From the NCBI GenBank assembly GCA_964658305.1, contig OZ210885.1, positions 23,436,001 through 23,500,000 on the forward strand: 64,000 nucleotides of DNA, written 5' to 3'. The first letter of the stretch is position 1; every line of letters starts with the position of its first letter. The DNA comes from Leptogorgia sarmentosa. Lineage: Eukaryota. This document shows positions 8,111 through 39,000 of this stretch, in pieces. The notes below the pieces were generated by a model that saw nothing but the letters and a program-made list of their open reading frames with translations, was not told the DNA's origin and searched no databases. Both the position numbers and the translations under genes were made by a program.

Positions 8111-8111
8111 T

Positions 8112-11977: not shown

Positions 11978-12449
11978 GCTTTAAACACTCAGTAGTTTCC
12001 TATATTTTATGGCCAAGACCAATTAGTGAATTCTGAGTGCAACATGTTATAGAATGAATCTTGCATAGTCTTTATGCCAAATTTCACAGTACTCTAAAAT
12101 GTCATTGTAACTGAAAAGGTGCTCACAGTTATCCACAATTTGTTGGACATGGAAAATGTTAAACTCTGTTTGAGAACATTCTGTTTCCCATCAATTTCAC
12201 TGGAAACCACTGGACGCTACTGGTTAGTATTTAAATCTTTCCTGGTATTAACATGGATTAATTTCATTTGTAATTTGTTATCACCGTTCTGAGTGACATT
12301 TCAAGTAAAACCATAACTACTGTTACAAAATGTATACCAGGTTTTCGACAAAGATTCGAAAAGACCCCAACAAACCCAGAAGGGTGATACCCTTATCTAC
12401 CCCTTAATAAAGATATAAATGTAAAGGCACACATAGGCATGGCGAACTA

Positions 12450-13754
12450 AGCCGAAGTTGTTGCTGGGAAAGCACACACAAACCGTTTTAAGTCATTCAA
12501 CTCTTGCCATTCGGACGTAGATTCACCAGTAGTAGGCGTTGCCAACCTTGGCAAGCTTCAGGTAATGGAGAGCAGTATGACGCCGATTCCATCCCACATG
12601 ATCCATAATCTCTGATAGATTAGACCCAGTTAATGCCAAAGTGATTGCACAACCTGAACGAAACCCATGTAAGGTCTCCCCATCATCATCCTTCATCTCC
12701 GTAAGATAATGCTTTAACCTGGCCTCCGCTGCGGAAGATGTCAACGGGGAATTCTTAACTCCACCCTGAGGGGTTGTCGGGCGAAACAAGTAGCCTGTGG
12801 TTAAGTCAATCTGCATCGCATTTGATACTGCGACATAATGCTCAATAGCCGCAACCGGACAAATAGTGAGGTTGGGGTTTCGCCGGATACCAAACACATT
12901 TTGATCGCCATCTCTGAGGGTCTTCCCCCAAACATGATTGAAAAGTAATCCATCGTCATTAGGGAACCGCAAGATCTCGGGCACTTTAACCTGACCCATA
13001 TCACCGGGGCAATCCCCACTGAAAAAGACGGCCTTAAAATAAGCCTAATCCCGAGCAATCAAAACCGCTGTGAAGAGGAGAGGGTAGGCCCTTCTGCCAG
13101 CCGACTTAAATGCAGTGCCAACCAGACCAACTTATCAATGAGAAAAGGTGTGGCTTGTTTTGGAGTAACGCGAGCTTGCAGCTGCTCCGCCGTGACCAAA
13201 CGCAAATAATCGTGAACTACTGTAGCCGCGGCCGGGTTGCCCAAACCCAAGCGCTTATCCCATTCTCCATCACATCCCAGAGCCAAAAAAATAGCACGTA
13301 ACTTCCCGATGTACGAGTCAACCGTCTTAAAAGAGAAGCGCATAGGACACACACATGCACAAACACCCTGTTGGCCCAGAAACAAGCAATCATTCTTGTG
13401 AACTTGAGTTTTCCCATGCTGGTCTTTAAACACCAAAAACCGTGTCACATCCCGTGGCGTCGCCGTCATCAATCCAGGGCGGCCGGGCAAAGCGGACAAA
13501 AAACATTCCAACTCCTTTCGCAATGATTCCTTCTGGCACACATAGCTAGTAGCCTGAGCCGACGTACCCAGCTGATCCAGATGAGTATCAATTGCCGACA
13601 AATCCACGGGAGGGGAAACGCCCGGATGTAATGAAACCGTCCGTTGTCGCTGGTAGCCGCAACGTTGGCAAAAATAGAAATCAAAATCATTCGCATAACC
13701 ACAACTCGGACACCTGTCGGACGCTACAAACAGCTTGGCCACAGGCACACAGGG
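12450..13754 (-). pseudogene. Tyrosine recombinase with N-terminal double-CxxC zinc ribbon (element A)
   Basis: CPSCGYAND...FCQRCG; SYIGKLRAIF; ETLHGFRSGCAITL...HVGW...ALHY. There is a stop/frameshift near 13050. Confidence 0.9.
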
Positions 13755-13846
13755 CTAAATAAAACAAGGGCAATAACCGTATGAAATCACACCATAATCA
13801 GAATTATATTGACCACTCAACTTTACAAACGGCAGGCATGTTCACA

Positions 13847-15950
13847 TCACCCCGCCGTGAAGTCTAAGGCAAAAACCCACAAATCCCCTGAGAGTCCTGG
13901 ATGTGGCACCCAACCTTGCGAACTCGGTACCCGTAGTGCAGACTGATCGCCCCTCCAGGCAACCCGTAGCGATAGAGTGGCATGTTCCTGAAGCAACGGC
14001 CACCAATATTTTCTGGGATATACATCCAATGTAACCAAAGTAGACGATCTGCGACATTGCTTCAAAAAACGTGATAAAGCGCCTACCATTACCAAAGGTG
14101 GAAAGACATATGGATGGGACAAAATTGGATCCTGTCGAGACAAATCCTGGGCAAAAACATTGACCGCGGCGGAATTCGGTGACAACCATGGGGTAAAATG
14201 CGGTAACAGATGGCCTTGCAAATCCCACATCACATTTGAATCAAGAGCCATCAAGGCACATGTGTGGCCCGTCACACCACCAAAGCGTTGTTGAACCAGA
14301 TTCCACATCTCCGCATCGAGACAACAATCTGAGGCTGACAGGCGACGAGATGGCGCATCCGCTGGATTGTCGTGACTAGAAACATGACTGATGAGACAAA
14401 TCCTGGGCAAAAACATTGATCCCGGCGGAATTCGGTGACAACCATGGGGTAAAATGCGGTAACAGATGGCCTTGCAAATCCCACATCACATTTGAATCAA
14501 GAGCCATCAAGTCACACGTGTGGCCCGTCACACCACCAAAGCGTTGTTGAACCAGATTCCACATCTCCGCATCGAGACAACAATCTGAGGCTGACAGGCG
14601 ACGAGATGGCGCATCCGCTGGATTGTCGTGACTAGAAACATGACTGATGCAGAGATGCACATTCAACGTAATGGTAGCAAAAAACAATCGCTTCACCGCC
14701 CAATTAAGCCGAGGGCTGCGGCCCCCGGCGGCATGCCAGGCAGCCACTACCGCCTGATTATCCACCAGAGCATCGACCCACATATTCTGGACTGTATTGG
14801 GGAAGGAAAATAAGACTCGCTCGAGAGCGATCGCCTCCTTAACCGAGACATCCCATTCTACTTCGTCTGGCGCCCAATAATCAGACACCTGGAGAGGCAT
14901 CGGCGAGGTCATCGAACCACCCCAACCAAACGCGGATGCATCTGATGCAATTGTGACATAAATATGTCGCTCGTCCCTCCAAGGTACCGAATGACACCAC
15001 ATATCGACAGACACCCAATGAGTAAGCTCCTCCCACAACGGACCCCGTAAAAAAATTTTCGGTTTTCCGGTCCGATGGTACAGAGATATAGCTGTATTCA
15101 TTTCACGTGTAAATAACAGAGTGGCCGGAACCACCAGTGAGAAAGAAACACATTTCCCGACCAACTGTTGCAAAAGCTTTACCGTAACGTGGCGACCCTG
15201 CAAAATCTCCGTCGCCAAGGCCATGAGTTGACCAAAAACCCCAGATATGGCACGACCTTGCGAGGCACCAACACCGATTTTGACAAGTTGAGAAAATAAC
15301 CCAGGTGAACCAATGTATACATCACTAAGAAGAGAGTGGATTTTGCCGCCAAAAACGACTGTCCGTTGTGTCGATCATCAATCTATAATGAACACGGTAC
15401 GCGAATTGAACGGAAGTAATTCGAGACCACCAGCCCTGTAGTATGGTAGACATAAGGAGACGCTTTCCATCCAAACGGGAGGGAATTATATAGGAAAACC
15501 CATCCTCCCCATTGGATCCCAAAATATTGACGCGTCGCCGAATCAAGCAAGAGATGATCATACCCCGACTTATCATCGAGGACCGTCTGGTAAAAATCAC
15601 GTTCCACGTACCGAGGAAGATCACTCAATGAGTTGAGACGAAACGGATTATATTGAATCCACAATTTCAAAAAACGTAGGATTATTGGAAAAATAAGACA
15701 CGGGAGGTCGATCAGAATCATATGCTCGACCTTTGAATACGCCTTTATAATGCTGCCATTGTGGACAAATCGACACTTTATCCCGAATCCAACTCAGCAC
15801 TCGAGCCTGCTGTGGAGTCGGAGAATGTCCCACCAAAGTCTCCCAATAAGCAGCATGTGCATGCAGTTCCCCAGCACGAAATGATGACGGGTCCCGGAAT
15901 ACTAAGTCCGCAGGGTCGCCCAACGATTGCCCATTCATAATAAAACACAT
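13847..15950 (-). pseudogene. RT + RNase H + methyltransferase-like pol (element A), frameshifted, with a 256-bp internal duplication
   Basis: RT: LDDKSGYDH, LPFGWKASP. RNase H: ASDAS, KEAIAL, LVDNQ, NPADAPSR. MT-like: VNVFAQD...YVFPP...PRKYWWP. Confidence 0.9.
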
Positions 15951-16194
15951 GGAACCCCCAAAGAGCCAGTGGAAGGATGACAGTTCTGACCTGGCCTAGC
16001 CAGGGGAGTTAGTTTGGAGACTCTGTTTCAAAACTGACAAACCCCCAAAAACCCTTAAATATGAGAACTGAAACCCCCAAAACAAGACACACTGTAATAT
16101 AGTTGTAAACACTCCTATTCTCTTTTGAAGAATTGACAAAGTAATACACAATGCATAGCACTAACCCAACAACACAATATCATCATTCCTACAA

Positions 16195-18250
16195 CTATTC
16201 ATGCAATTCAGTTATGGAGGTCGAGGCTGGCGCAGGAGTTCCAGAATTCTGACGTGCTTGAGTATCTTGTTTTTTCTTAAAACACGTAGCCTGGAAATGC
16301 CCCGGAATTCCACAGTAGAAGCATCGGCGATCCTGCAGATTGCCCTGACCCCCACAACCTCGCTTGATTGGTCGCCGAGAATCCTGCTCAGCCTTGCGCG
16401 AATATCTCTTATCCACTTTACTGACGCGGTCCAACACGCGTTCTTGATCCTTATCGCACAATAGTGCCAACAACAAGTCACGGAAATACTGAGATGACTC
16501 GCCAATCTTATCCCGCATAGTATCATAGGTCGCCAGATAGTAAGCACTCTTGTCGTGCTTTAAGTCCATAGCCGTATCCTTCAAAGATTCCAACAATTCT
16601 AATGCGTCATATTTGTCGGTCGTGCGGTTATGCTCACAATCTTCTTCTGAAGAGCGTCGACAGAAGGCTTCGACAACATCTCTATATTCTTCTTCAGAAC
16701 AGCCAACTCCTTCTTAAGGTTCTATAAAAAGGACAACAGTATAACTGCCACATCCGCCTTTTAAGGAACCCTAAGGAACTGAGGCAACATTGAACATGCA
16801 ATTTAATAGACGTAACTGCAATCCGAACTGCCTACATGTAACTCTGCCATGTACATGTCTAAAATACCCCTGTGAACGGTAACAGACAATCAATGAACCC
16901 ATCCATGCCGAGGCTGATGTACAAACACTGCCCCCCAGGAACGAACGGCCGATGAGCACCAACCATGCACGCACGGAATATGCCACAACAGGGAAATCAC
17001 AACATAACCTAACTGTCTGTGGCCGACAGGACAACCCCTACAGGTGGTCGTACTGTAACCCCACCGAACCGGTGCAACTAGCAGATAACAGACCCATCGA
17101 CCGCAATGGTGCCCGACCACGCCCTTCAGCGCGAAAATTTAACCTTCCATCTGGCCGTTCAAGACATGAACCATTCATGCGGATGGCTCCCCTGAACTGG
17201 CCATCAGTTACTACTGCCTACTAGTAGTTAATGGACCATCCCCACAGGTGGCCCCGCACAAAACTCCCCATCAGGGAACTGCAAATAGCCATCTAGCCGT
17301 AAACCAACAGAAGCCCGCAGGCAGCTGGCGACACGCTGACACCGGCTGGACTTCATATAACTTAACTGTCCTGCTGGCAGTCAACAGAACCACACATACA
17401 GGGGTTCACTACCAATACTTCAAGCCACCCAATTTTACTATCCCACTGGCAGTAAAATACGTAACGATAAGACACAGCGATGGCTAAACCTGAACGCCGA
17501 GAAGATAACTGTCCCACGAACAGTTAACCGAACAATCTCCACTGGGAAATGCCGATCCCATACTTGAAACTAGCACATAACCGCCCTAGCGAATCATGCC
17601 AGACAACCATATTCAGGACAATATCATCGCCTTACAAACGCAAACCGAGTGCGTACCCCCAAGAGTATAATGTATCATAATCGGCAAAAATCAGCCCCCG
17701 CGTCACGGCAAACGAACATACCTATATAAAAGAATAGGCAAACAAACTATCCTAGCTGAAATCCTAATGCAGAAAATGTGCCGCCTGTAGCATGCATGTA
17801 ATAACCGTGCAACCTAATACAAGAGTAACCGACTAAACCGATAGCCGTCAGCAAAATGTTAAGAATAAGTCTACCAACAGCACGCGACAAGTAGAAAGCG
17901 CTGATCGTAATAAACATGTGTGAGCGACTCCCATAGAACACTAAATATGCAAACTGTTGTTTTCGCCAAACCCGACAGTACCATCAAGTCAGCAAATAGA
18001 TCAATATAATAATCATCCCGAGAAATCAACTCATAGGGAAATCATCGATACACAAAAAAAAAACCAACAAGAAAGATATAGAATACCTCCAACTCTTCAT
18101 TCGGATTGTTCGCCACTGCTTGAAGAACAGGGGCTGCCGGAGGCGGTTGTGTTGCTGTTGTGGATCTATTTCAGGGCCTAGGGGCACCTGAACAGCATCA
18201 TGATCCCGTTCCTGAATAAATTGTACATCACCTTCAACCTCTTCAGCCAT
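16195..18250 (-). pseudogene. Spliced gag with CCHC zinc knuckle (element A); exon 1 18250-18087, intron 18086-16722, exon 2 16721-16195
   Basis: Zinc knuckle CFYCGIPGHFQATC; donor TTGGAG|GTATTC; acceptor ttgtcctttttatAG|AAC. Each exon carries one frameshift. Confidence 0.7.
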
Positions 18251-20040
18251 AGAAAATTCGTGCCTTGTTTCAATCACAAAATCGTCCTGTTACTACAACT
18301 CACTTTGTTGCTGACTTGAAGATACTGAGCTAAAACCGAGTTTAACAGCCTTTTATACCTATGGTCCTCCGTCCCTATCCTAATCTTTTATTCACAATTC
18401 CTTATTAGGTATTATTTATCACTAAATCACTTTTGCATATAATTACGAGTGTTAAGAATAGTATGCTGGTACATATATGCAGCTGCACTTTTCTAAAACT
18501 GTTTTTAATTATGCTTCAAAGAGATCTGGTTGATAGAAAGACAGGATGGAAAACACAAAAGTGGACATGCTCCCAAACTGCTCCTTGCAGGCAGAATGAT
18601 AACTATAACTGCTGAGTATTTGTTTGTTTTTAAAGTTTTCAAAATCGTATATTTTTATTGCACTGTAGCTAAATTAAAAAAAAACAATTTCTGCATTTTG
18701 GATACTTCTGACTTCAATATTTTTTGTTGTCATAGTTTGCACACTGTGTAGCTCATGGAGAAGGTGAGAAAATAGAACGTGAGAAAATATTTGATACTGT
18801 GTATGGGAACTGCTACGATGATGTGGGCAGGTAAAATTGTACTGAATAATGTGGTCAGTTATCACTTATAAGAAAAACTTTAAACTATTTAGCTGAAGCA
18901 AGTGAACAATTGTTGAAATATACATTAATGCTCAAGATTTTTTCTTGTTGCAGTGGAAGAAACACGGCAGTATGCAAAATGTGCAAAAACGATGACGGCG
19001 ATGACTGGCTCGGTTGCGACAAATGTGGGCAATTTTTTCACGCCAGTTGCAGGGTTGTTTTTTCGACAGCCCTCTCTCAAACCTTTTATTGTTAGGACTG
19101 TTGTGTAAATTATGCCTGTACATACTGTATGTACCTATTCAATGTTTAAAATAGTTATGTAAATGTGGAGTGAAAAAATAATTTGTGTTATTTGTGAAGT
19201 TTAATAACTTTAGACACCCTGTTGTTAGTAAAGTGACTTATAGTTAGATACTATGTTTCCTCTATTCAGCCCTTTTGGGGCTTATTTATTTTTGCCAGCT
19301 TTCAATTGGGGTTCATTGGAAGGGGGATAAATATAGGGTGGGCCCTTCCTGAATTTCCCGCAGATTTGTTAACGTAAATATGCCAATTGACACAACACAT
19401 TCATCTATATCAATTTGTATTAAAGTATGCCCCATCCAATGTGGTCAGTATACGGTAATGCCTTTTCCTCTGATAAACGTTTTTAACAACGACCTTAACG
19501 AGAGGTTACAGTCCCTTTTGCGCATGTGCTAGCTTTGTTTACGTCTGGAGACTCCACCGGATGTGTCAGTATTATTCTTGGTCTAGTCTCACTCACTTCC
19601 GGCAATAATAAAGGCTCGTTTGTTTTAATTGAGGGGTGAGCATATTATTTAAATCGGTGTAATCAGTGCATGCCTCTTGTAACATGTGATGTTCTTGTTT
19701 CAAATAAGGGGTCGTCATGCACACACATCTCACAAATTCCTCATAGAAAGGACAAGGTAATACTTATGAACCCATTATACATGTATCAGATGGACTATTC
19801 ATAGAAAGACCAAATATTATTTATGAAATGCCCCAATATTGTCATATTGTAATAACAATACTGTCTGGCTTTTTGTGAACAGTAGTTCAATAAATATTAC
19901 AATTTTGACTGATTAATCCAATAATGCTGTTTAGGGGAGTCAGGGAGTGGACAGATAATTTATTTAAAGCAGTGAAGTGTGCTGTTGGGGGGGAGGTTAT
20001 TTCCTGCCACACTATGGGTAGTTACCATGCAGCAGTCATA

Positions 20041-21032
20041 CAGGCGCGGATCCAGACCGTGGCGAACGGTGCTCGCGCCACGGTCAGATTTTTCCCACCC
20101 TAGATTTTCCGGGGTTCACCTTTTTCTGATATTAGATTAAAGAATAATAATTTGAAATAAATCCTTCAAAATCAAGGAAATCTGCATCTATTGCAGCCTA
20201 TTTGAATAACATTTTCCCTGATAGTTCACATTATTTTATGTGGTGTCATATTTCGCGTCAAATGCAATGAAAACGCCGAAATATTATGTCTCTTCAATAG
20301 CATAATCATTCAGTTAACACTGAACTATAAAAACAGCCGAAACCGTACCGAACTGTGCCGAATATGTTCGGTAAACAGTCAAAAATTTGAAGCTGCCGCC
20401 TGCGATCACAGCCACAAATTTTGCCACGGTCAGTGTGCAAAAAGTTTCCATTTGTTACTAAACATAGTAACTTTCTGCCACAGTGCAGAGGTGCAAACCA
20501 ATCACAGGGCTAGCTGTGGTCATGTGCACCACAGTGAGTGTATTTTTATTGCACAATTCAAATGATCAACGATGAGTTTGGGTACTTGTCGGATTTGACG
20601 GGTAGAATTTCATAACAAACCTATACTTATCGAATGCTTGTTAGAATGGAGGCTTTTGAAAAGGTCGATGTTCTCAAGAAGCTCGTTGAAATCTTTCAAA
20701 AATTGAACCAGGGCGAAGATATTTCAGGGCAGTTATCACTCTTGAGGCAACAATGTGATAAATTTATCACTGAAGGAAAAGCTCTGCCGTATAAAATCTA
20801 CAGGCGACATTGTGCTGTGAGTGTGCGAATTTTCCAAAAGTCAACTGTCCCCAAGAGTCAAATTGAAAGATCTGGGCCTAATATCCATGTTAAGTAAGAA
20901 TTATATGATAGAATTCGATGCTCTGAACACAGGAAATGTATTCAAATATTTAGCGGGGGTGCCCCCGGACCCCCCTGGTTATGCGAGTTTTTGACCCTGC
21001 CACGGTCAGATTTAATGCTGGATCCGCGCCTG
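20041..21032. mobile_element. Non-autonomous hAT-type element
   Basis: Perfect 15-bp TIR CAGGCGCGGATCCAG / CTGGATCCGCGCCTG, resembling the autonomous hAT TIR CAGGGGCGGATCCAG. The flanks share only GTCATA (imperfect TSD). Confidence 0.8.
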
Positions 21033-21132
21033 GTCATACCCATAGTAGGACAAGTAAAGCAAGGTGATATATGTCATTTTAGAACACATGCCATATATGA
21101 GTAATGAAAACACAATTTTTATACAGTATATT

Positions 21133-21645
21133 TAACAGTTATTCTGCGAACTCGAGTCGTATATAATCGTATTATAACAGTTTTACAGCTTGATAAATAC
21201 ACGCCAAAAAGCACTGAAAAAACAACAGTTACGGAATTAAAATAGTCAACGTTTCGATTAAACCATAGCTAGTTTTAAATTTCAGCAGTTTTCATCTGTA
21301 TTTTTCTGCATTTGAAAGTACAACACAAATTCTTCCGTTGTAAAATGTCAACAAACAGCAACAAGCGATCCAACTCAGTCAAGCAATAAATATTACAGCG
21401 TCGAGTCCGGTTGTCCAGATTCAAAACTGCACAATAAACATTTACAACTAAACTTCTTGAATTTTATTCTTTTAATCGGTCGCAAAGACGTTTTTAACTG
21501 TTGAAAACTTCAATTTCGGCTCCGCTCTTCCAGCCATTTTGTTTACATTTCTGTACTAGCAGGATATGAGCTAATATCCTGCTAGTAGAGAACCAATCAG
21601 ATTGCAGAATAGCTCATATCCAGTGCTTGTGTATATAATAATAGT
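21133..21645. mobile_element. Short non-coding repeat element (possibly non-autonomous Crypton-like) into whose end YR element B inserted
   Basis: It begins TAACAGTTATT and, with element B removed, ends TAATAGTTATT (short direct repeats). There is an internal perfect 14-bp hairpin at 21554-21587. The family call is a guess. Confidence 0.3.
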
Positions 21646-22132
21646 AAAATATCCAAACTGGCCATTCTTCCACGGATCATTGATTAGCATTGGGAAAAGG
21701 GAAGATCCATTGTTTCCAATGAATCATGAATGAATTCCGTAGAAGAAAACCAGCGAGGACAGGACGCAGACGGGTGGGGGGGAGGGCGCATTTTACTGCA
21801 ACGTACGAGTACCCCACCCCAACCATTCCCCGGCCCCCATCCCCCTCCCGCTCCTGTATCCTGTTACTTTATCCTAGCACTCCAATATCGTCGTGGCGAT
21901 CAGCACAAATTATGGCATATAGCACGGGAGACGCGGCATTTTATACACGGCAAATCATTATTTATTCATCAACTGCATTACTTATTCGTATTTTAATGCT
22001 CAATAATGATCCCTGAGCGTTTTGTCCAATTTGAATAGTAAAATATCCAAACTGGCCATTCTTCCACGGATCATTGATTAGCATTGGGAAAAGGGAAGAT
22101 CCATTGTTTCCAATGAATCATGAATGAATTCC
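21640..22132. repeat. 3' split-direct-repeat block B2 / A2 / B1 of element B
   Basis: The 99-bp B repeat appears identical in its two copies. The ~172-bp A repeat is nearly identical to 29023-29194. Confidence 0.95.
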
Positions 22133-22187
22133 TTCGCAAAAAACCGCTACTGCCTACTCCTGACCCCAATCCCACCAACCCTCCCCT

Positions 22188-22272
22188 TTCCCCATACTCA
22201 ACATCCTTTCCCCATACTCAACATCCTTTGCCCATACTCAACATCCTTTCCCCATACTCAACATCCTTTCCC
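22188..22272. repeat. 20-bp tandem repeat (TCCCATACTCAACATCCTTT) x~4 in the 3' UTR of element B
   Basis: Directly visible. Confidence 0.9.
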
Positions 22273-22347
22273 CCCCCCCACCTATTGACCAAGGTTCCCT
22301 TCCATACCGGAAGGAGTAAAGGGACACAGAGGACATCACTCGATGGT

Positions 22348-23690
22348 CTACGACGACAATGGCGGGAATGCGAGGACGAAATCCTTAACAGCATTGAGGT
22401 CCTGGTACAATTTAGTCAAATTTTCCGCTGATTGAGGACCATCCACTGCTGCTGCCATGAGAGCGGAAGTGCTGTCGTGTCGAAGCACCTGCTCCAGCTG
22501 CATATAATACCGCGCCGTATGGGCTCTTTCCCATCCAACATGGCCCATAATGTCCGCCAATGCGGAACCAGATAGGGCCAGGGTAACAGCGCATCCGGAG
22601 CGGAAACTGTGCGCCGTCTCACCTTCATCCAAGCCTGCGGCCGAAAGGTACGTCTTCAACCTGCCATTCATACCTTCTGACGATACGGATGTGTCGGCAA
22701 TTGTTCCTTGCACCGTTGTAGGACGAAACAAAAACCCGTGGGAGAGATCCACCTGCATGATACGTGAAGTCGAAATATATCGCTCAATCGCAGCTACAGG
22801 GCATATACGTGTATTAGAACATCGTCGAATACCAAAAAGATTGGAACCATCCCCGCGAAGCGTCTTACCCCATATGTGATTAAACAATAATCCATCATCA
22901 TTGGGGAAGCGGAGAATCTCATTGGTACGAACCTGAGCAAGATCACCCGGCCGATCACCCGAAAAGAAAAGGGTCTTCAAATAGGCTTGATCTCGGGTCA
23001 AAATGTACGTTTGCAAAGGGTCGTCCTGGCAACTCAGAATACGATGATCGATATGGTCGGATAACCGGGCTAGCTTGTCGACAAACAATGGGACCGCCTG
23101 TGGAGTCACACCTGCCGCTGCCTGCTCTTCTTTAACACACTTCAGGTAATTCTTTACCAATAGGGAAGCCACAGGATTACCTAAACCAAATCCACTTTCC
23201 CAGTCCCCCCCCATGATCATTATTCTTAAAAACAGTGCGTAACTTCCCCACGAGAGAATCGACAGTGCCGGCCACCAAACGAAGCAGGCATTCACAGGAA
23301 AAGGAACCTTTAAGGCCCCGATGCGGGCACAGCAGGGAGTGGACCTGGGTTTTTTCCAGTCTTGTCTTTCCACACAAGAAACCGAACGATATCCAAAGGG
23401 GTAGCTGACAGGAGATCCTTGGGCACGGGCAAAGAGCCCAAAAACTGAACCAAAAGATCAGCCACACGGGACGTCTGGCGATCATACGCAGACTCTTGGT
23501 TAAACAGCTGAGAAATTCGCGCATCAACCGATGGGAGGTCAACCGGCAGCACCTGGCCCTGTTGCGGAATCATAACAGACCGACGAACATAGCCACACTG
23601 TTGACAAAACCGAAAACCGTGGTCGTTCGGATATGAGCAATTTGGACATGCCACAGCCGGAAGCCATATACGAGGGAGCACCCAAAGAGA
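22348..23690 (-). pseudogene. Tyrosine recombinase with N-terminal zinc ribbon (element B); two frameshifts at homopolymers
   Basis: CPNCSYPND...FCQQCG; FFSGDRPGDL (Arg box); TAHSFRSGCA...HVGW...ARYY. Confidence 0.92.
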
Positions 23691-23817
23691 CTATGGTATA
23701 AAGTAAAACGCAGAACGCCATGAGTTAACATACATTTAATGAACATAAGCCTACACAATGAGATTGTGACTGGGTCGTAGACCAAAATATTACAACTCAA
23801 TCACGCAGTCCTAGGAA

Positions 23818-25794
23818 TCAGCCATACACAAGGCGAAATGCCCACAAATCCCAGGGAATTGGTCCGTATTTGACCACGCCAGCTTTACTCGGTCGAAGCA
23901 GGACACCGGTTTCTCCTTGACGGGCGATGCACATAGTATGAACACTGTCAGCGCACAAAATGGGCCACCAATACTTCCGAGGGTATCGATCCGACATGTG
24001 ACGAGACAGCGCATCCGCGGGATTCTGAGTAGTCGGAATATACTTCAAAGAAAGACTGAGATTAAGCCGCACCGTCACCCAAAAGAGCTCTTTCAATGCA
24101 CTCAACATATCCGGGGATCGAGTATACTGACGCTGCCAACAATCAAGAAGTATATGCGAATCTACGTGGACATCAACACGATGATTACGTACCTCATCAG
24201 CCAAGGCTAAAAGTGTATGTGAAAGCGCAACGGACTCCTTAACATGAATAGGCTGTGACAGCGTAGGTTCAGTCCAGGAATCGCGAACTTCCTTAACGAC
24301 ACAACCACGGTCACCCAACAATGTGCCACCCCAGCCAGAACCTGAGGCATCCGATGCAACTGAAATAGTAAGATGCCATTCCTCACGCCAGGTCATATGT
24401 TCTGTCCACTTGTCCAGGAACCGCCAATACAAAATTTCCTCACGCAGTGGACCCTGGATCTTGATAAGCTGGCGAGATCGCATAGCCTTGGTCATGGCAA
24501 TATTCATTGCCCGAGTAAATAATTTTGCGGCAGGAACAACCAAACTGAACGACACGCATTTTCCAATCAGTTTCTGGAGGGAGATAATCGTCACATACTT
24601 CCGGGATAGAATACTTTCCCGAAGAATAGAAAACTTTTGCACTTTATCCGACGGCAAAAGGAAAGCTAACAGCGTAGAGTCACAAGTTCGACCCAAAAAG
24701 ACTAGTCGTTGCACGGGAACAATAATAGATTTTGATAAGTTCAAAAAGTAACCCAATGACGTTAGGACAGAAATTGCAATAAATACAGCCTGGGAAGCAG
24801 AGTCAAAACTACTGGGGACATCGGCCTGCACCAACGCAGTAGGAACAGGCAAACCGTCCTGACGAGGGAACCTCCGTTGGCCGAGATGACGGTCATCAAT
24901 GTACTGGGAGCAGGGTATATGCTGGTGACGCAACTCTTGCGTGGCGACCATGCCCAACGTCTGATATACATAGGGCGAAATTTTCCAACCAAATGGGAGG
25001 ACATTGTTGACAAACCACCAACCTCCCCATTGGAAACCCATGTAGAGACGACTCTTGTCATCCATGAAGACATGATCATATCCGGACTTATCATCCAACT
25101 TCGACTGGTAATGATCCCGGTCAACGTAGCGAGTCAGATCAATCACAGAATCAAGACTGAAAGGCATGTCTTTCATCCACGAATTAAGATAACGCTGATC
25201 TTGGCGCAGTCGAGGTTTCTGTGGTTCAACCGTCACAGGCATGACTAAAAGAGGTGGTGGACATTCCCCCACTCGACCAATTACATCAACCGCCCCGACC
25301 TCAATGCGTTCACAAATAGTGCGTGAAATAAAATCTGTGAACGGTTTGCACGAGACATTGTTCTGAAATATCCTGGGCACCGGAGTATCAGATTGATATG
25401 TAACACCACCAAAATCTCCACGAAAATGAGCCCAGTAGTTTCGAACAGAAACCCGGTTCGTTATCCAACTCATAATTTCGGCGTTGTTGGGTAACGCTGC
25501 AGACAATCGGCCCCACACCTCGGGGTGGTTATGTATTTCATCCGCACGAAATGTGTTAGGGTCACGGACAAGTAACTCACAGGACTTCGCGGGTGAACCA
25601 AGAGACTCATCAGACAGAGGAACTGATGAGTACCCGGCAACTGCTGCCCCAGAACTGGTCGCTGGAAGATGTTTCCATCGAATCTCGCGGGTCTTAAAAC
25701 GCTCAACGGCTGCCAGTGGGGAAAACTCAATTGTAGCGGCAGCTTCCCACTCGGGCACAACGAACGTTTGAAAACGATAACGTTTAACGGGCGG
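23818..25794 (-). CDS. RT + RNase H pol of element B (open frame; MT-like domain mostly deleted)
   Basis: Motifs LDDKSGYDH, LPFGWKISP, YIDD, ASDASG, KES, VDS, NPADALSR. The start given here is the proposed splice acceptor. Confidence 0.9.
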   Translation of the reverse strand, partial: PPVKRYRFQTFVVPEWEAAATIEFSPLAAVERFKTREIRWKHLPATSSGAAVAGYSSVPLSDESLGSPAKSCELLVRDPNTFRADEIHNHPEVWGRLSAALPNNAEIMSWITNRVSVRNYWAHFRGDFGGVTYQSDTPVPRIFQNNVSCKPFTDFISRTICERIEVGAVDVIGRVGECPPPLLVMPVTVEPQKPRLRQDQRYLNSWMKDMPFSLDSVIDLTRYVDRDHYQSKLDDKSGYDHVFMDDKSRLYMGFQWGGWWFVNNVLPFGWKISPYVYQTLGMVATQELRHQHIPCSQYIDDRHLGQRRFPRQDGLPVPTALVQADVPSSFDSASQAVFIAISVLTSLGYFLNLSKSIIVPVQRLVFLGRTCDSTLLAFLLPSDKVQKFSILRESILSRKYVTIISLQKLIGKCVSFSLVVPAAKLFTRAMNIAMTKAMRSRQLIKIQGPLREEILYWRFLDKWTEHMTWREEWHLTISVASDASGSGWGGTLLGDRGCVVKEVRDSWTEPTLSQPIHVKESVALSHTLLALADEVRNHRVDVHVDSHILLDCWQRQYTRSPDMLSALKELFWVTVRLNLSLSLKYIPTTQNPADALSRHMSDRYPRKYWWPILCADSVHTMCIARQGETGVLLRPSKAGVVKYGPIPWDLWAFRLVYG

Positions 25795-26085
25795 CTGAGA
25801 TAGAAAAGAACGGAAGGGGACAAAATAAATCATAACGGCATCTTCCGAATGACCAGAAGGGGGCAACAGTCCCGGCCCAACTGCGAGAGTCGAACACAAA
25901 GAGCTTCAGATAGCCCTGGGAAAGTTATCCCCCGCCAGTCAACGGTAAGAATAGTAACAAACCAGAAAATAGACACAGATAACCCAAATGCAAACGTTTA
26001 TTATATATCCGATTTATGATTCATCCTTTACTAACAACATTATGAACTAACACAACACGAACGTATCACAGCAGTAACCTAGATA

Positions 26086-28978
26086 TCACTTTCTCTGTGG
26101 ACAGTTACGCGCAAAATGGCCTAGACGCCGGCACTGAAAGCAGCGTACTCTCATCTGAGGAGGCTGAGGACAAGGGACCGGGGGATAGGGATTCAGACGG
26201 AGTGGGGGCGGAAGCATAGCACGTGGGGCATTCCTTGGCGCTTTATAGACTTTCACCATCGTCTTAGCCACTTCCTTCTCCACGTCGTCACCCAAGACTT
26301 GGATAACGAAATCGGCCATTTGTGGCGTCATGGGAAGCCGTTTGCAGTTGGCGAGCACAGCGGCATATTTTCGTACATCTTTGTGGGCGGAGCAACGCGC
26401 AACATCTTCCAGATTCTCTAATGCACCCAAAAGGGCATAGGGATCGAACACCGCAATGGGACGCGACGCCAACTGTCTCACCAACAATACCGCCTGGTCA
26501 ACTGACGATACTTGAGCAATATTCTGGAGTTGTTCAAGGCGTTGTTGCATTTCCCGCACGCGATTCTATAACAACATACGACGTGTTAACGCATGTATCT
26601 CATACCCACCGCTACGGTAGGTTAAGTTAGTGGGCAAGTCAAATTCCGCGGGCACGCGTGCCTAGTCAACACAACTCTAACATGACTAGAAACACCTCTG
26701 TCAATACCGTACCCCACTTAAATTAGCAATCTCCCATGCTATAGTTACACATGCTCATATACCAACGAAGTTGGGATTTACCAGAAGCACATGTTTTAAT
26801 AGACCAATTTCACGATATCAGCGAATTCAAGTTCACTCGGTACGCTGGCACAGTCGGAAGCAAGCTAACATTGCCAGAAGCACATGTCTCAATATCACAT
26901 TTAACGATATTAGCAAGTTCAAGTTCACTCCGTCCTCGTGCACAGTCCGACGCAAACTAGCAGTGCCCGACGCACATCTCAAGATCAATTTGACGCTATT
27001 AGCGAATTCAAGTTCGATCGGCCTCGTCACGGTCTGAAGCAATCTAACATTGCCAGAACCACATCTCAAGATCAATTTGACGCTATTAGCCAATTCAAGT
27101 TCAATCGGCCTCGTCACAGTCTGAAGCAATCTAGCATTGCCAGAACGACATCTCAATATCAATTTAACGATATTAGCAAATTCAAGTTCAATCGGCCTCG
27201 TCACGGTCTGAAGCAATCGAACAGTGCCAGAAGCACATCTCAATATGAATTGTACGATATTAGCCAATTCAAGTTCAATCGGTCTCGTCACAGTCTGAAG
27301 CAATCTAACATTGCCAGAACCACATCTCAATATCAATTTAACGATATTAGCAAATTCAAGTTCAATCGGCCTCGTCACGGTCTAAAGCAATCGAACAGTG
27401 CCAGAAGCACGTCTCAATATGAATTTGACGATATTAGCCAATTCAAGTTCAATCGGCCTCGTCACGGTCTGAAGCAATCGAACAGTGCCAGAAGCACATC
27501 TCAATATGAATTTTACGATATTAGCCAATTCAAGTTCAATCGGCCTCGTCACGGTCTGAAGCAATCTAACATTGCCAGAACCACATCTCAATATCAATTG
27601 AACGATATCAGCAAATTCAAGTTCAATCGGCCTCGTCACGGTCTGAAGCAACCGAACAGTGCCAGAAGCACATCTCAATATGAATTTGACGATATTAGCC
27701 AATTCAAGTTCAATCGGCCTCGTCACGGCTTGAAGCAATCTAACATTGCCAGAAGCACCTCTCAATATCAATTTAGCTATATTAGCAAATTCAAGTTCCA
27801 TCGGTACACGTGCCCGGTCTGAAGCAATCTAACATTGCCAGAAGCACATCTCAATATCAATTAAACGATATCAGCCAATTCAAGTTCAATCGGCCTCGTG
27901 CACGGTCTGAAGCAATCGAACATTGCCAGAAGCACATCCCTGAATATACCAATTCAACGATATTAGCGACTTCAAGGTCACTCGGTCCTTGTGCACGGTC
28001 TGAAGCAATCTAACATTGCCAGGCGCACATCTCTCAATATACCAATTTAACGATATTAGCGACTTCAAGGTCACTCGCTCCTCGTGCACGGTCTGAAGCA
28101 ATCTAACATTGCCAGAAGCACATCTCTCAATATACCAATTTAACGATATTAGCGACTTCAAGGTCACTCGGTCCTCGTGCACGGTCTGAAGCAATCGAAC
28201 ATTGCCAGAAGCACATCTCTCAATATACCAATTTACTGATATTAGCGACTTCAAGGTCACTCGGTCCTCGTGCACGGTCTGAAGCAATCGAACATTGCCA
28301 GAAGCACATCTCAATATACCAATTTCCCGATATTAGCGACTTCAAGGTCACTCGGTCCTTGTGCACGGTCTGAAGCAATCGAACATTGCCAGAAGCACAT
28401 GTCTCAATATCAATTTAACGATATGAGCAAATTCACGTTCACTCGGTCCTCATGCACGGTCTGAAACAATCTACCCTTGTCAGAACGCTAATACTGCCCG
28501 GTAAACGCGAAGCTTGGGGAAGCCATTGCTTGGGCGATACACAATTCCCCCGCGAACACCAATTCATACAATAAAGATACGAACTAAGTGAAAACCGCTC
28601 ATGCAACCCATGAGGAGATAAAACCACCCAACTAATATAGCTGCTCAGGCAAACCTACGAAGTTATAGCGCTAGATAGGCGAGAAACCCCACCGAACTGA
28701 AAACCCCAACCAAACAGACGAAACTTGAAACACTGAGACCACACATGAAGAACTTCCACAAACCACCTGGGCTGTGCTAGAAAACCCATCTAGCATGAAA
28801 TAGACAACATAATTACCTCCAAATTCGGTGCCTGTGGCTGGTCCTCTTGAGGAGGATTCGGATTAACGACACCAGGTGGACCCGGCAAGTTGTGAAATAG
28901 CACAGGCTCCTGCCGTGGTATTGGATTAGGTTGATCTTCTTCGTGTCGTTGCGGTGGGCGAACAGGTCGTTGGGCCAT
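26086..28978 (-). CDS. Spliced gag with CCHC knuckle (element B); exon 1 28978-28817, intron 28816-26566, exon 2 26565-26086
   Basis: Exon 1 MAQRP...APNLE (54 codons) ends GAG|GTAATT. The acceptor gttgttatAG|AAT joins in frame to NRVREMQQ...CFQCRRLGHFARNC. Confidence 0.8.
26775..28485. repeat. Tandem array of ~19 units (87-bp then 93-bp variants) inside the gag intron of element B
   Basis: The anchor CACGGTCTGAAGCAATC (or a close variant) recurs at 27028/27115 (period 87) and at 27901/27994/28087 (period 93). Units degrade at both edges. Confidence 0.95.
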
Positions 28979-29729
28979 CTGTTCGGTTTCGTTATCTTCT
29001 TTTTGGGTTTCTTTATATTCTTCTTTATCCAGCACTCCAATACCGTCGTGGCGATCAGCACAAATTATGGCATATAGCACGGGAGACGCGGCATTTTATA
29101 CACGGCAAATCATTATTTATTCATCAACTGCATTACTTATTCGTATTTTAATGCTCAATAATGATCCCTGAGCGTTTTGTCCAATTTGAATAGTTATTAA
29201 TGTTTTCCCTTTGGGGTGCATGGCCTATGGCATTTAGAAATGATACTGGGCTTTGTAATTTTGACAGATGCCACTTAACTTGAGGGTAGGCACATAGGGA
29301 TATGTGTGATAGGCACTTAGATCTTAGAGATGTGTAGCTAGGACTGCATCATAGACTGCGGCCCAGCGTGATGCAAGCTATGTTGCAGCCTAAAGAAGCA
29401 TCAGATTATTCCATTTTCATGTTGCCTTTTATCATGCCTTGTTTGCCACAACTCTCTATTATGCCAAATAGTCTCCCCACATTGAAGATTTTGGCAATTT
29501 GAGTCTGGGTTGCCTACCCTTCCTCCAGGGAGAAAGGAGTAATATGCCTTTCTTGATCTATTAAAAAGGTGTACCTGGTTCGCTTTGTTCACATTCAAGA
29601 TACTGAAGAAGACAGTGAGCAATCCGACAATCATGATAGTGCTCCACTGCTTTCCACCCACATGAAACGCAAATCATCAGATATCGATTTGAGCTGTCAA
29701 CTGACTGGACTTTCAAAATTATAAATCAG

Positions 29730-30110
29730 TTGTCGATGACAATGGATGACCATGCTAGAAAACAAGTACAAATGCATGAGGTAGCAAAGGCAAAAAGATG
29801 TCAAAGAAAGCTCCACAGCAATTTGGTAACACTTTTCATTACAACAAGGTATATTACACACAGTTTGAAGGTCAACATGCTACAATCGAAGAGTTTGTAA
29901 ATGGAGAATTTGTAAAATATGTGAACAACAATGGCCATTGTGTCGTCCCACCGGCCTCGTCATCTCAAGATGACAAAGCAATCTATGAAAAAGCAGAAAC
30001 CTTGGTCCATTACAGTTATCCACTCTCAGATGGAAAGATGATGTTGTCGTTGATTGATATTCAAGGCTGTGGCTATGCATTATGTGACCCGGAAATTGCA
30101 ACAGAAAGTC
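29730..30110 (+). pseudogene. Alpha-kinase (eEF2K/TRPM7-type) domain fragment truncated by Harbinger
   Basis: DHARKQVQMH...IEEFVNGEFVKYVNNNG...LVHYSY...LIDIQGCGYALCDPEIAT. Confidence 0.85.
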
Positions 30111-33480: not shown

Positions 33481-34085
33481 ATTATTTATTATTTATCTAA
33501 GTACTCTCCAATTTGTTAGTAAGTATATAACTTGCTTCACACAGTTCACAGTTTGTTGAATTAATACTTGACTAAATTCTGAACTTTTCTTTCATATTTG
33601 TTTCAAGATTCCTTCGAATGAGTCCTGATCGTTTTGAGAATTTACTGACTTGTGGGTCCCTATATTGTAAAACAACGTTGCAGAAGTCGAGAAACAATCA
33701 CACCAGCTGAACGGCTTACAATAACTTTAAGATATTTAGCATCTGGAGACTCACAGCAGTCGCAATCGTTTAATTTTCGTGTCGGAAGAACAACACTGTG
33801 CAACATAATACGTGGTAACCACCCAGGACACAGGAAGATTGGAAGAAGATAGCAAATGAGTTCTTCACGAAATGGAACTTGTCGAGAAGTAGAACAGACT
33901 GTTTAATATTACACGAAGTTCATGTAACATTCTTATTATTATTATTACTCTGTGGTACAAGACAGTGGGCTCGGAAACGTTCCCTGTACGTTTTAGGGTT
34001 AAAAATTGTAATCGAGTGATTGTTTAGTTTCACCAAATAAAATCAGTACAAAACATTGTCTTTCTCGACCTTTCTCGACATTATT

Positions 34086-34103
34086 TGGTGCCGTGACCAG
34101 GAT
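34086..34103 (+). promoter_or_regulatory. Primer-binding site, tRNA-His type
   Basis: TGGTGCCGTGACCAGGAT lies 5 nt after the 5' LTR. Confidence 0.8.
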
Positions 34104-34112
34104 TATTCGAAT

Positions 34113-37100
34113 ATGGAAGGAATCGCTCAACTACAAGCCTCACAAAGGGCTCATAAAGCACATATAACAAAGGTTTTAAAGAAAGCAAACGACTTTGTAA
34201 ACACGGAGACACATGTAGACAAAAACATGGCGCTAGCCAGCTTGCAGACCGCACTGGAACAACTAATGAAGAAAAGGGACATTCTACGAGAACTCGACGC
34301 GAAGATTGTTGCAGAAATGGAAGATCCTACGGAACTTGAGCGCGAGATTTTTGAATCTGAAGAGATAAGTTACGAGTTAGAAGAGAACATCAGCCATATA
34401 CGTAAGTACATTGAAGTATTCTCTTTACCAAGTCCCACGCATGAATTAAGCAAGCCCGCTGCATCGACTTCAACCCCACAAGCCACTCTACAACAGGACA
34501 CAACGCAAGAAACCCCGCAAGAACCCAGCACGTACCCCAGCAAGAACACCCGCAACAAGCTGCACAACAAGTCTTCCCACAAGAGACCAGTCACAATCAC
34601 ACATCTACACCAATATCCACATCAGTTAATGCAAACGCACCACCATTTGTTCCACATGATCCAAGTAATGCCACCACCAGTACTCCTTCGCAACATACAT
34701 GTCGACTCCCAAAACTGAGCGTTCCTGTATTCTGTGGAAACCCTCTCCAATGGCAGTCTTTCTGGGACTTATTTGACACCACCGTGCATAGCAACTCCTC
34801 TCTAAATGGTGTACAGCGTTTCACCTATTTGAAGGCACAACTTAAGGGGCGATACTTTACAAGCTATAACGAGCAAGCAGTTAACCTCCTCAAAACACGA
34901 TTTGGACAGCCTCACAAGATAGTTAATGCACATATGCAAGCTCTGTTAGAAATCCCTGCCCCAAACGAGAAATTGGCCAGCCTTCAAAGATTTTACAACA
35001 CAATGAAACTCACATTCAAGGACTTGCATCAATTGGGAAAAGTCAAGATTCATATGGCGACCTTCTCATACCAATTATATTGGGGAAACTACCAAGCGTG
35101 TTTTGCAAGAATCTAGCTCGGGAGCATGGCACATTAGATTGGACAATCCACCAATTGCGTAGTGCTATCCAAAAGGAACTGAGAATTCTCGAACCTGGAC
35201 AGTTTGCCAATTCTTATAGTAGAAATAATGAACAGTCAAACTCCACTGTAACGTCCTCATTTCATACTCAATCACCCAACCAGTCAGCACCTCTATCCCC
35301 TAAACACACCCGACATCCAGTCCGTGGCAAAGGTGAACTATTCTGCCTCTACTGTAATGGAAAGCATCATCCCACAACATGCACTGTCATCACTGACCCT
35401 GAGAAGCGTTATGAAACCGTAAAGAAAGAAAACCGCTGCTTTAACTGTCTTGGTAGACACCCGGTCACCCTATGCAAGTCAATGAATCGTTGTCAATGTT
35501 GCAAATGGAAACATCACACCAGTCTATGTAAAACAAAATCGAATGTTACAAACCAGAAACAGGATAGTACCACCTCAGACCAATCTAAGGGACAACCACC
35601 AGCCACCCCACCATCAATCCATTCAACTAACATTAACTTGGATTGTGGTACAACTTGTTTATTAAAGACAGCGATTGCCACAGTAAGTGGTCCACAACTC
35701 AAGACAGAAGCGAACATCCTGTTTGATGAAGGGGCCCAGCGCTCATTCATCCAACAAGATCTGGTCAACCAACTCCAATTAGAGCCAACAAGGAAGAAGA
35801 CTATTAATTTATCCGCATTTGGTGCAGCTACCCTGTCAGTACGCCAACTTGATGTTGTAACAATCCATCTAATGACGGATTCTGAAAAGACATTATCCTT
35901 AGACGTCTTAGTAGTCCCTGACATCACCACCCCAATTCAAAACCACTTACACTCTATTGTGCCTAATTTGGAATACCTCAAGGAGTTTAAACTCGCCCAC
36001 CCAGTCTCTGCTGATGAACGGTTCGAGATCTCCCTGCTCATTGGTGTCGACTATTACTGGCAAATCGTGCAAGATGAGACTGTGCGAGGTGATGGACCAG
36101 TAGCAGTCAAATCAAAGTTGGGATATCTGCTTTCTGGACCAATTCATTCCAATGCATCATCCATGTCACCATCAACCAGAATTCTGAATGTAAAGATTCA
36201 GCACAAGGAAGAAATGTTTGACCTTGAACGTTTCTGGACAGTTGAGTCTCTTGGCATTACACCCCCTACAGTCAACGAAGAGCAAGAAAACCAAGCCAAA
36301 GAATACCAAAGTACATCCATAACATGTGACAAAGACGGTGCTTACATTGCTGCCTTCCCCTGGAAGAAAGACCATCATCCACTTCCTACAAACTACAAAA
36401 CATGTGAACGCCGAACAAGATTGTTAGCTCGTCGCCTAGCCCAGTCACCAGCCCTCCTGAAAACCTATGGAGAGATTATCGCAGATCAGGAGAAACGTGG
36501 GTTCATCGAGCAGCTTCAACCGCAACAAAATGGTCCAAATCAACACTACATACCACATCACCCTGTTATCAAAAAGTCCTCCACAACACCCGTGCGAATC
36601 GTTTATGATTGTAGCTGCCAACAGTCAACCAACTCCCCAAGCCTAAACGACTGTCTAGAGACGGGACCTCCACTATTGACTGATATGTGTTCCATTCTTC
36701 TACGTTTTCGTACGCACATGTACGCCTTTTCCACTGATATCGAGAAAGCGTTTCTCCAAGTAGGTTAAACGAACATGACCGAGATTTTGCACGTTTCTTA
36801 TGGCTATCAAATCCCAGCGATCCAGAAAGCCCATTCGTCACGTATCGTTTCAAGGTGGTCCTATTTGGCTCTGTAAGTTCCCTCTTCATGCTTAATGCTA
36901 CCTTACACCACCATCTGGATAGTCACAACACCACCGTTACCCAAGACATGAAGGAGAACCTTTATGTCGATAACCTGATATCCGGGTGTGGAACGGAAGT
37001 CGAGGTCATCAACTCCTACGAAGAAGCACGATCCACCATGAGTCAAGGTCACTTCAACTTACGTTCCTGGGCAAGCAATAGTCCCGTACTCCAAAGACGT

Positions 37101-39000
37101 GCTGCCATTGACAAGACAACTGACAAGTCGCAGAGTGTCAACCTTCTTGGTCTTAAATGGAACCCTATAGCTGACCAGCTTACCCTAGTGGAGAACAGTG
37201 GCAGTTTCACTCAAACCAAACGCCAGATCCTACAACAATCTGCAAAGGTTTATGATCTGCTTGGTCTCTTATCCCCTGTGACGGTGCGAGCCAGAATTAT
37301 GTTGCAAGACCTGTGGCGTGGAAAACTCTCTTGGGACCAACCTGTCGATGAAGACCTCGCTCGGGCATGGTCAAACATTGCTGAAGATATCCAAGAGTCC
37401 ATCCGTGTGTGTGCAACCCGTTCAAGACCGTTCTTCCCGGAGATAGTGAAGCAAGAAGACAAGGTCCACTTACACGTATTTTCCGATGCCAGCACAGTAG
37501 CATATGGCGCAGTAGCATATGGCGCAACAGCATTTCTTCAACGAGCAAACCATACATCATTTGTTACGGCAAAAACCTGTGTTGTACCCCTCAAGACACG
37601 AACACTTCCTCAACTGGAACTCATGGCTGCCCTCATCGGTGCAAGATTGGCTCATTTCATCCAAAACAACCTGCAGAAACGATTTCTCAATTTGAACGTC
37701 CATTTGTGGTCAGACAGTCAGATCGTTCTTCATTGGTTATCCAGTGAAAAAACATTACCACAATTTGTCGCCAACCGTGTGAAAGACATCAAGCAACTTT
37801 ATTCCCCCTCTTTCTGGTGTTACTGTCCCACATCAGACAACCCAGCCGATCTGTTAACCCGAGGAATTACTTTCCGTCAACTTCGATCTTCAACGATTTG
37901 GTTCCATGGCCCATCGTGGTTAACATCCGAAAGTCAGTGGCCGTCATGGATCCCCAACGAATCACTATTGTTATCCACGCAGACACTTGACGTGTCTACC
38001 GCCTCTGCGACAACCAGTATACAGTACGTCCACCAAAACCAGTTGCACGCAGGTGTAAATTCCACTGTTACAGCACTACGCCAGAAATTCTGGATTCCCG
38101 CAGCGTGTCAGTCTGTAAAGAAAGTTCTCCACCGTTGTGTTACCTGCCGGAAAGTTGTAGGAAATCTGTATGGAACGCTGACGGAACAGAGTCCAAAGTG
38201 TACATCTGTCTTTTCACTTGCGCAACATCCAGAGCCATCCACCTCGAAATTGTCATTGATTTGACTGAAGAAACCTTTATCCAAGCCTTCCACCGTTTTG
38301 CTAGTCGCAGATCACTTCCAAAACGAATGATATCTGACAACGTGTCAACCTACCATTCGGCAGCGGATGAACTTAAAAGGCTCTTTCAATCACCCTCACT
38401 AAAGAAAGCATTCATTGTGCGTGGAGTTGAGTGGGAGTTCATACCCAAGAGAGCACCATGCCAGATAGGTATGACGAAAACGGTCATCAAGAAGGTACTC
38501 GGTCGAGCAAGAATCAGCCTCACCGCCCTTCAAACGCTAATTACAGAAATCGAAGCTGTGCTCAATGACAGACCATTAACCTATATTTCCTCCGATTTAA
38601 ATGACCTCCAACCCGTCACACCCGCTCACCTTATCTACGGCAGACTAATGACGATGTTACCTTACGAAGACGTAGATGATGACGAGATTGAAGATCCAGA
38701 TTTCATGGATGACTCTGAAGCAAGAAGAAGGGTTAAAACACGAGCACAACGGTTAAAGCAATTCGAATCGCGGTGGAAAAGGGAGTATCTGACGTCACTT
38801 CGTGAGTTTCACAAGACCACGGGAAAAAACACTGAGTCAGTTCAAGCAAGCGACAAACCGAGACTCCAATGGAAAATGGGAGTTATCGAAAGCCTGATAT
38901 GAGGAAAGGATGGTTTTGTATGCGCCGCGAATCTATGCACCAAAAGCGGAAAGACCAATCGACCCATCACAAAGCTCTATCCATTAGAACTTTGCAGCAA
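34113..39000 (+). pseudogene. BEL/Pao gag-pol (Cys-His knuckles, aspartic protease, RT, RNase H/A17, integrase) with frameshifts and stops
   Basis: CLYCNGKH, CFNCLGRH, LFDEGAQRS, YIPHHPV, DIEKAF, YVDN, FSDAS, LELMAA, WSDS, NPAD, ISDN, EAVLNDRPL. Confidence 0.93.

Follow-up and report, generated by a model that had tools for sequence, protein, structure and literature searches.

A probable coding leader exon shared by three alternative last exons in a tyrosine recombinase retrotransposon of Leptogorgia sarmentosa

A 64,000-nucleotide stretch of the Leptogorgia sarmentosa genome (GenBank assembly GCA_964658305.1, contig OZ210885.1, positions 23,436,001 to 23,500,000 of the forward strand), referred to here as the window and numbered from its first letter, carries on its minus strand element B, a damaged copy of a split-direct-repeat retrotransposon with an ALOG-type tyrosine recombinase (YR). 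Comparison of element B with its relatives suggests that the family probably makes Gag, Pol and recombinase from one leader exon with the start codon, which would be spliced to three alternative last exons, each with its own polyadenylation (polyA) site. The leader-to-pol and leader-to-YR splices as well as the use of the polyA sites are the steps that we infer from the sequences.

An earlier note on this DNA had described the leader exon and the acceptors of element B, and these features were confirmed. The coding part of the leader (28817..28978, minus strand, as are all parts of element B given below unless stated otherwise) spans 162 nt, i.e. 54 codons that open with ATG, are rich in Gln, Pro and Glu and end with Leu-Glu at TTGGAG/GTAATT, a donor in phase 0 that ranked second of the 502 GTs in element B in a weighted score. 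The TATA-like box was located as TATAAAA at 29100-29094. AGs in phase 0 were found ahead of gag (26565), pol (25794) and YR (23690), behind which the frames are open for 159 aa (gag), 658 aa (pol) and 126 aa (YR N-terminus). The frames are spaced rather than overlapping: the gag stop at 26086 is followed by the pol AG at 25794, and the pol stop at 23818 by the YR AG at 23690. It was also correct that YR has no ATG ahead of its zinc ribbon, since its first Met is codon 40, past the ribbon; the first Met in pol is codon 108, past the conserved RDP motif (about codon 76). Scoring of the sites, which the earlier note had proposed as a check, favored two of the three acceptors. With our own pyrimidine/YAG score, the pol and YR acceptors were strong and ranked first and third of 309 AGs in element B, whereas the gag acceptor was weak. 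A position matrix trained on the YR acceptors of the relatives placed pol first in element B and gag and YR outside the top 12.

The conservation of the YR acceptor was analyzed in relatives, for which the best 80 of 132 metagenome loci and one genome contig were used. That contig is labelled as a bacterial metagenome-assembled genome while carrying this animal retrotransposon, probably through host contamination; scans of viral contigs for relatives gave nothing useful and one weak locus at most. The ribbon start could be read in 43 of 84 sequences, the two elements of the window included, and these were clustered into 21 families. In 41 of the 43 loci an AG lies exactly 42 nt (14 codons) ahead of the first ribbon Cys. 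One of the 41 (L067) was dropped for its unrelated upstream sequence, and L020 stands for one family because L019 had lost the AG, so that 20 family representatives remained. In all 20 the AG is kept at the identical position and phase (the next commonest AG offset occurs in 10 of 20), and an in-frame ATG ahead of the ribbon was found in just three; the family alignment that had been put forward as a test of acceptor conservation thus came out in favor of the YR acceptor. Its triplet is TAG in 17 families and CAG in three, and positions -20 to -3 are 84% pyrimidine and contain no second AG. Identity between families has a median of 59% over the first 34 YR codons versus 37% on the intron side, and the spacer between pol stop and YR acceptor varies from 53 to 320 nt. 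An invariant AG and pyrimidine tract, combined with low intron-side identity and variable spacers, is the pattern expected of a 3' splice site under selection, and a YR frame without its own ATG needs an upstream start codon. A DNA copy in which the leader had been joined without intron was not present among the 43 YR starts.

When the best-scoring AG upstream of the RDP anchor of pol was picked blindly, 15 of 24 rows had it in phase 0, against about 8 expected, the rows not being independent of one another. Four of the out-of-phase rows (L020, L035, L054 and L058) encode N-terminal peptides identical to those of in-phase relatives, which implies later frameshifts. In some loci, element A of the window among them, the pol acceptor was not recognizable. 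For gag, hand-picked acceptors keep phase with the downstream anchor in six of ten loci, which also speaks for the scheme; the four offset ones would fit frameshifts in decayed copies. Leader exons were assigned in 11 elements (nine relatives and the two of the window); eight of them end in Leu-Glu followed by GT, and seven keep an in-frame ATG. Nine of 17 inspected upstream regions contain a low-complexity leader of Gln, Pro, Ala and Glu that ends at a GT, and TATA boxes stand 113-122 nt ahead of the leader ATG in L059, L015 and element B. A rival strong donor near the gag or pol stops that is common to the relatives was not found, which counts against chained fusions of the three proteins.

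PolyA hexamers are enriched where transcripts of single genes would end. They were found past the gag stop in eight of 11 elements (mean of dinucleotide shuffles 1.6) and ahead of the YR AG in 12 of 20 families (shuffle mean 2.5); none of 1000 shuffles reached either count, and the antisense strand was at chance. In element B, an AATAAA at 25997..26002, about 86 nt past the gag stop, is the predicted signal of the gag mRNA, and an ATTAAA at 23735..23740 in the pol-YR spacer that of the pol mRNA. These per-gene signals, which the earlier note had missed, turn one donor with three acceptors into a putative unit of alternative last exons.

Between the gag and pol exons lies a structured RNA element about 90 nt long, whose profile matches 24 loci. 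In an alignment of 20 copies, 91% of cells pair, compared with 27-48% in slid controls, and 10 of 14 pairs have changed on both sides; since the structure came out of this very alignment, and its copies are related, these figures are supportive and do not amount to a probability. The stem lies downstream of the first gag hexamer in all six loci in which both were located and at or ahead of the pol acceptor in all eight loci with a located acceptor. In element B the predicted branched stem (25850..25942) is a divergent version that matches the family profile weakly (E 2.5), yet folds well (z -3.6). The outer stem and the 3' hairpin were reproduced by RNAalifold, but of the middle hairpin of the single folds one pair only remained, so that the two helices are better established than the three-way shape; two of seven single folds were no better than shuffles. 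Rfam gave no match for window positions 11500-30000 and one sub-threshold, unrelated match in five loci. A hammerhead ribozyme or a selenocysteine insertion sequence was considered for the stem and rejected, because by eye the core of the former and the spacing of the latter were absent. A further recurrent feature is a repeat array in the first intron, which was present in 10 of 11 elements (eight by Tandem Repeats Finder, two more by self-alignment) and absent from element A. In element B the intron, which would be removed from all three mRNAs, spans 26566..28816 (2251 nt, GT...AG), and its array, to which no strand is assigned, spans 26805..28485 (87-93 nt unit, about 19 copies).

Among the matches of a Gag profile search were proteins whose N-termini resemble the leader; the ten that were looked up are all NCBI models, from Acropora, Oculina, Actinostola, Ptychodera and Branchiostoma. 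One of them (P0149) is a RefSeq model of Acropora millepora of 245 aa, in whose cluster another 245-aa member stems from a 906-nt Logan contig, while two Gag-only members of 163 aa stem from ENA contigs of 1.4 Mb and 15.7 kb. A leader-bearing product on a short contig and Gag-only frames on long ones would fit a short spliced gag mRNA. Further, two Branchiostoma proteins, P0278 with the leader and P0300 with a read-through ending in Gln, join Gag at the identical residue. The earlier claim of one donor serving three acceptors was thus upheld in part, with strong support from the comparison of relatives: the YR acceptor in 20 of 20 families, the recurring leaders ending in Leu-Glu before GT, the lack of a conserved rival donor and the leader-Gag models speak for it, whereas leader-pol and leader-YR fusions were not seen among the products, Pol proteins not being among those searched.

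Several observations weigh against the proposed scheme. In gag of element B the first Met is already codon 6, and its acceptor ranks only 40th of 309 AGs. The gag acceptors were selected by eye, and their phase is therefore partly a matter of construction. The same applies to the leader donors, for which selection was by eye or through a scan for phase 0; it is their recurring Leu-Glu end and not their phase that counts as evidence; their scores span -0.8 to 4.8, and no leader was found in eight of the 17 upstream regions. Concerning the products, the leader-Gag entries of NCBI are predictions, and for the Logan contig the type of run is not given. None of 87 ribbon-bearing proteins among 260 YR-type proteins inspected, most of which are prokaryotic gene calls on DNA, carried a leader, and no leader-Pol product was seen, Pol proteins not having been searched. 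A search with the element B leader against longer proteins was without matches, and neither a member above 260 aa nor a named model with a fused leader was present in ten Gag clusters near element B, whose sequences were not inspected singly.

A different arrangement of donors, in which the leader joins gag and donors in gag or pol give Gag-Pol or Pol-YR fusions, or in which internal promoters supply the first exons, has some footing in these products and is nevertheless unlikely. Leader-Gag is the sole product type seen, gag is connected with pol in the models P0186, P0223 and P0192, and the Porites lobata model P0302, which also speaks against the proposed scheme, fuses the end of pol with the YR acceptor predicted here. 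Where P0302 leaves pol, however, a phase-0 GT was present in five of 17 pol ends only, with scores of -1.6 or lower throughout, and absent in element B; a shared strong donor near the gag and pol stops was not found, and both frames retain stops that are followed by the enriched hexamers.

Translation of pol and YR from one RNA without splicing, by reinitiation, near-cognate starts, read-through or frameshifting, was considered very improbable. A nearby Met is available in three of 20 YR families and, within 7 codons of the acceptor, in three pol families (L007, L010 and L062), the latter also telling against the leader scheme, and many YR proteins in the databases start with a Met at codon -10. 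As an own start of YR this Met was rejected, because in the DNA GTT or GTA prevails at this codon and just three of 43 loci have ATG there. Translation without splicing would also have to contend with the in-frame TAG at the YR acceptor in 17 of 20 families, with spacers that are variable and non-overlapping, and with 49 ATGs between leader start and gag in element B, and it leaves the invariant pyrimidine tract and AG unexplained. Slightly less probable still, in our view, is a polycistronic RNA resolved into single-gene mRNAs, with a spliced leader added in trans at every AG and a polyA tail behind every gene. Operon resolution by trans-splicing is known in hydrozoans, and spacers in which a polyA signal precedes an acceptor look like those of such operons. 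On the other hand, 17 of 20 YR exons lack an ATG ahead of the ribbon and require an upstream coding exon; a leader with its own ATG and a donor in cis is at hand, and Gag proteins that carry the leader are known from the databases.

In the preferred scheme of one leader and three last exons, transcription would begin downstream of the TATA box in repeat A1. The leader donor would then be joined to one of the three acceptors, the leader would provide the ATG, and each last exon would terminate at a separate polyA site. Since introns are retained in the genomic copies, we infer that unspliced read-through RNA would be the template of reverse transcription, as the earlier note had assumed. Such full-length RNA would have to escape both splicing and the hexamers, those of repeat A2 included. 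The whole stem and the intron-1 array would be carried by this RNA only, which makes them candidate packaging or priming signals; of the features found, the branched stem, placed between the gag hexamer and the pol acceptor, would be the likeliest signal for packaging or reverse transcription.

One leader, alternative acceptors and alternative polyA sites are combined in the major late unit of adenovirus, an unrelated DNA virus whose leader is non-coding. Among retroelements, foamy virus pol and retroviral env are expressed from spliced mRNAs while the unspliced RNA is the genome, as proposed here; Gag of retroviruses, however, is made from unspliced RNA (available portions of PMC8003144 and PMC12789967), whereas Gag of element B appears to be spliced, with the leader giving the start codon, and each gene seems to have a polyA signal of its own. 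In plant Ty1/Copia elements, splicing and early termination lead to a Gag-only mRNA in a similar way, by one splice inside a single gag-pol frame, according to the sections seen of PMC5580714; element B has three separate frames, each with its own acceptor. Among the closer relatives, ALOG-containing DIRS1-type retroposons were described from marine metazoan hosts, mostly as inactivated copies (Iyer and Aravind 2012, PMC3537659, in part), and share with element B a Gag zinc knuckle, reverse transcriptase (RT) and RNase H, a recombinase that combines an N-terminal zinc ribbon with ALOG and catalytic domains, and terminal direct repeats. The strings splic, intron and exon do not occur in the main text of that paper. 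PAT elements, or Pat1-like elements of the echinoderm form, are reported in Nematostella and share with element B the A1-ORFs-B1-A2-B2 repeats, the Gag zinc finger and the YR on the same strand; unlike for element B, leader exons, acceptors or per-gene polyA sites are not mentioned in the portions of these descriptions at hand (PMC4157794, PMC3266345, PMC6681497). In DIRS1-like elements pol and YR often overlap instead. Leader splicing of YR retrotransposons was not found in the accessible parts of the YR-element and transposon-survey literature (PMC7192593, PMC6681497, PMC3537659, PMC12477816, PMC5890265, PMC4157794, PMC3266345, PMC3783388, PMC13465315), a set that does not include the papers by Goodwin and Poulter (2004) and by Poulter and Butler (2015) or Repbase Reports, any of which could mention it.

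The identity of element B is given by its ends and domains. It extends from repeat A1 (29031..29194, 164 nt, 99% identical to A2), which forms the 5' end and holds the TATA box, to B2 (21640..21751) at the 3' end, with B1 (22034..22145) and A2 (21876..22039, containing ATTAAA at 21997 and AATAAA at 21966) in between. These split direct repeats in the order A1...B1-A2-B2, the Gag zinc finger and the YR on the same strand as pol are the hallmarks of Pat1-like elements. Inverted terminal repeats, which in DIRS1-like elements go with an internal complementary region, were not seen to bound element B among the 25 of 27 repeat pairs shown; direct repeats bound it instead. An ACTATT motif is common to both ends (29194 and 21640) and to the B1/A2 junction, with similar text preceding the promoter in L006, L015, L017 and L059, and is likely a recombination site. 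In L010 (2216-2643) the YR end is followed directly by TATA box and leader of another copy placed head to tail, and L007 and L017 each hold repeated element sequence on one contig, which would fit tandem integration.

The gag exon (26086..26565) encodes 159 aa with a CCHC knuckle. The pol exon (23818..25794), which follows the strongest acceptor of element B, encodes RT, an RNase H-like region and a C-terminal region that is conserved after RNase H in the relatives and mostly deleted here, with about 104 codons lost in frame at 23992/23991. ALOG-type YR retroposons are described with an inactive adenine methylase domain behind RNase H, whereas Ngaro elements have split direct repeats and lack a methylase domain. 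In a comparison with Ngaro elements the split direct repeats fit and the conserved C-terminal pol region is present; Pfam Dam, used as a methylase test, gave no match to this region, and a pairwise comparison with the neighboring Dam-like protein was not significant. The YR exon (22348..23690) encodes zinc ribbon, ALOG domain and tyrosine recombinase, with the acceptor 14 codons ahead of the first Cys, and is broken over three frames near 23350-23200. Neither the pol deletion nor the broken YR frames appeared in the earlier note. Pfam identified DZR, ALOG_dom and Phage_integrase in the recombinase, and zf-CCHC (Gag) and RVT_1 upstream of it, which is the architecture of ALOG-type YR retroposons. 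ALOG_dom scored below the curated cut-off in the fragment of element B (E 2.6e-5) compared with 4.4e-21 in element A. The best named match of the YR was from Paramuricea clavata.

Element A (12450..18360, minus strand) is a more decayed, distant relative of like layout. Its leader starts with ATG at 18250 and ends as in element B at a donor at 18087/18086, and AGs precede gag before 16721 and YR before 13754, with the RNA stem at 16045-15955. Within its pol C-terminal region, a 256-nt tandem duplication (98%) occupies 14132-14649. At 7499-9146 (minus strand) lies a decayed DIRS-type fragment, in which an RT/Dam-like frame (weak Pfam Dam match) overlaps a recombinase-like frame that was named by eye and had no Pfam match; this overlapping layout contrasts with that of element B. 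The remaining neighbors were named from motifs: we take 34041-38902 (plus strand, repeats at 33933-34069 and 39154-39290) to be a broken BEL/Pao-like long terminal repeat retrotransposon, 42922-46035 (minus strand) presumably an unbroken hAT-like transposase frame of 1037 aa, 48646-52959 (minus strand) presumably a fragmented large transposase-like gene, and 57378-59366 (plus strand) presumably RT of a long interspersed nuclear element (LINE-like). At 53079-57343, inverted repeats of 159 nt (99%) surround two facing ORFs of 229 and 784 aa in a layout like that of a DNA transposon.

In the portions of the DIRS literature examined, no account was found of how three frames are expressed or of how an RNA is chosen for copying. 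The layout described here offers an answer open to test, for it names three splice junctions, places two polyA sites inside the element and points to one conserved RNA structure. We tentatively consider the wider possibility, which we would not yet call probable, that a widespread clade of YR elements in marine animals (corals and anemones, perhaps also hemichordates and amphioxus) is expressed in the manner of a viral late unit, with a coding leader, three polyA-bearing terminal exons and no protein made from the genomic RNA, which the new stem and the intronic array, both absent from the mRNAs, would select for packaging and reverse transcription. If element B's family is indeed expressed from a spliced leader, its current annotations would miss the true N-termini of the proteins, and a frame that lacks a start codon or is separated by a stop would not by itself be proof of a dead copy.

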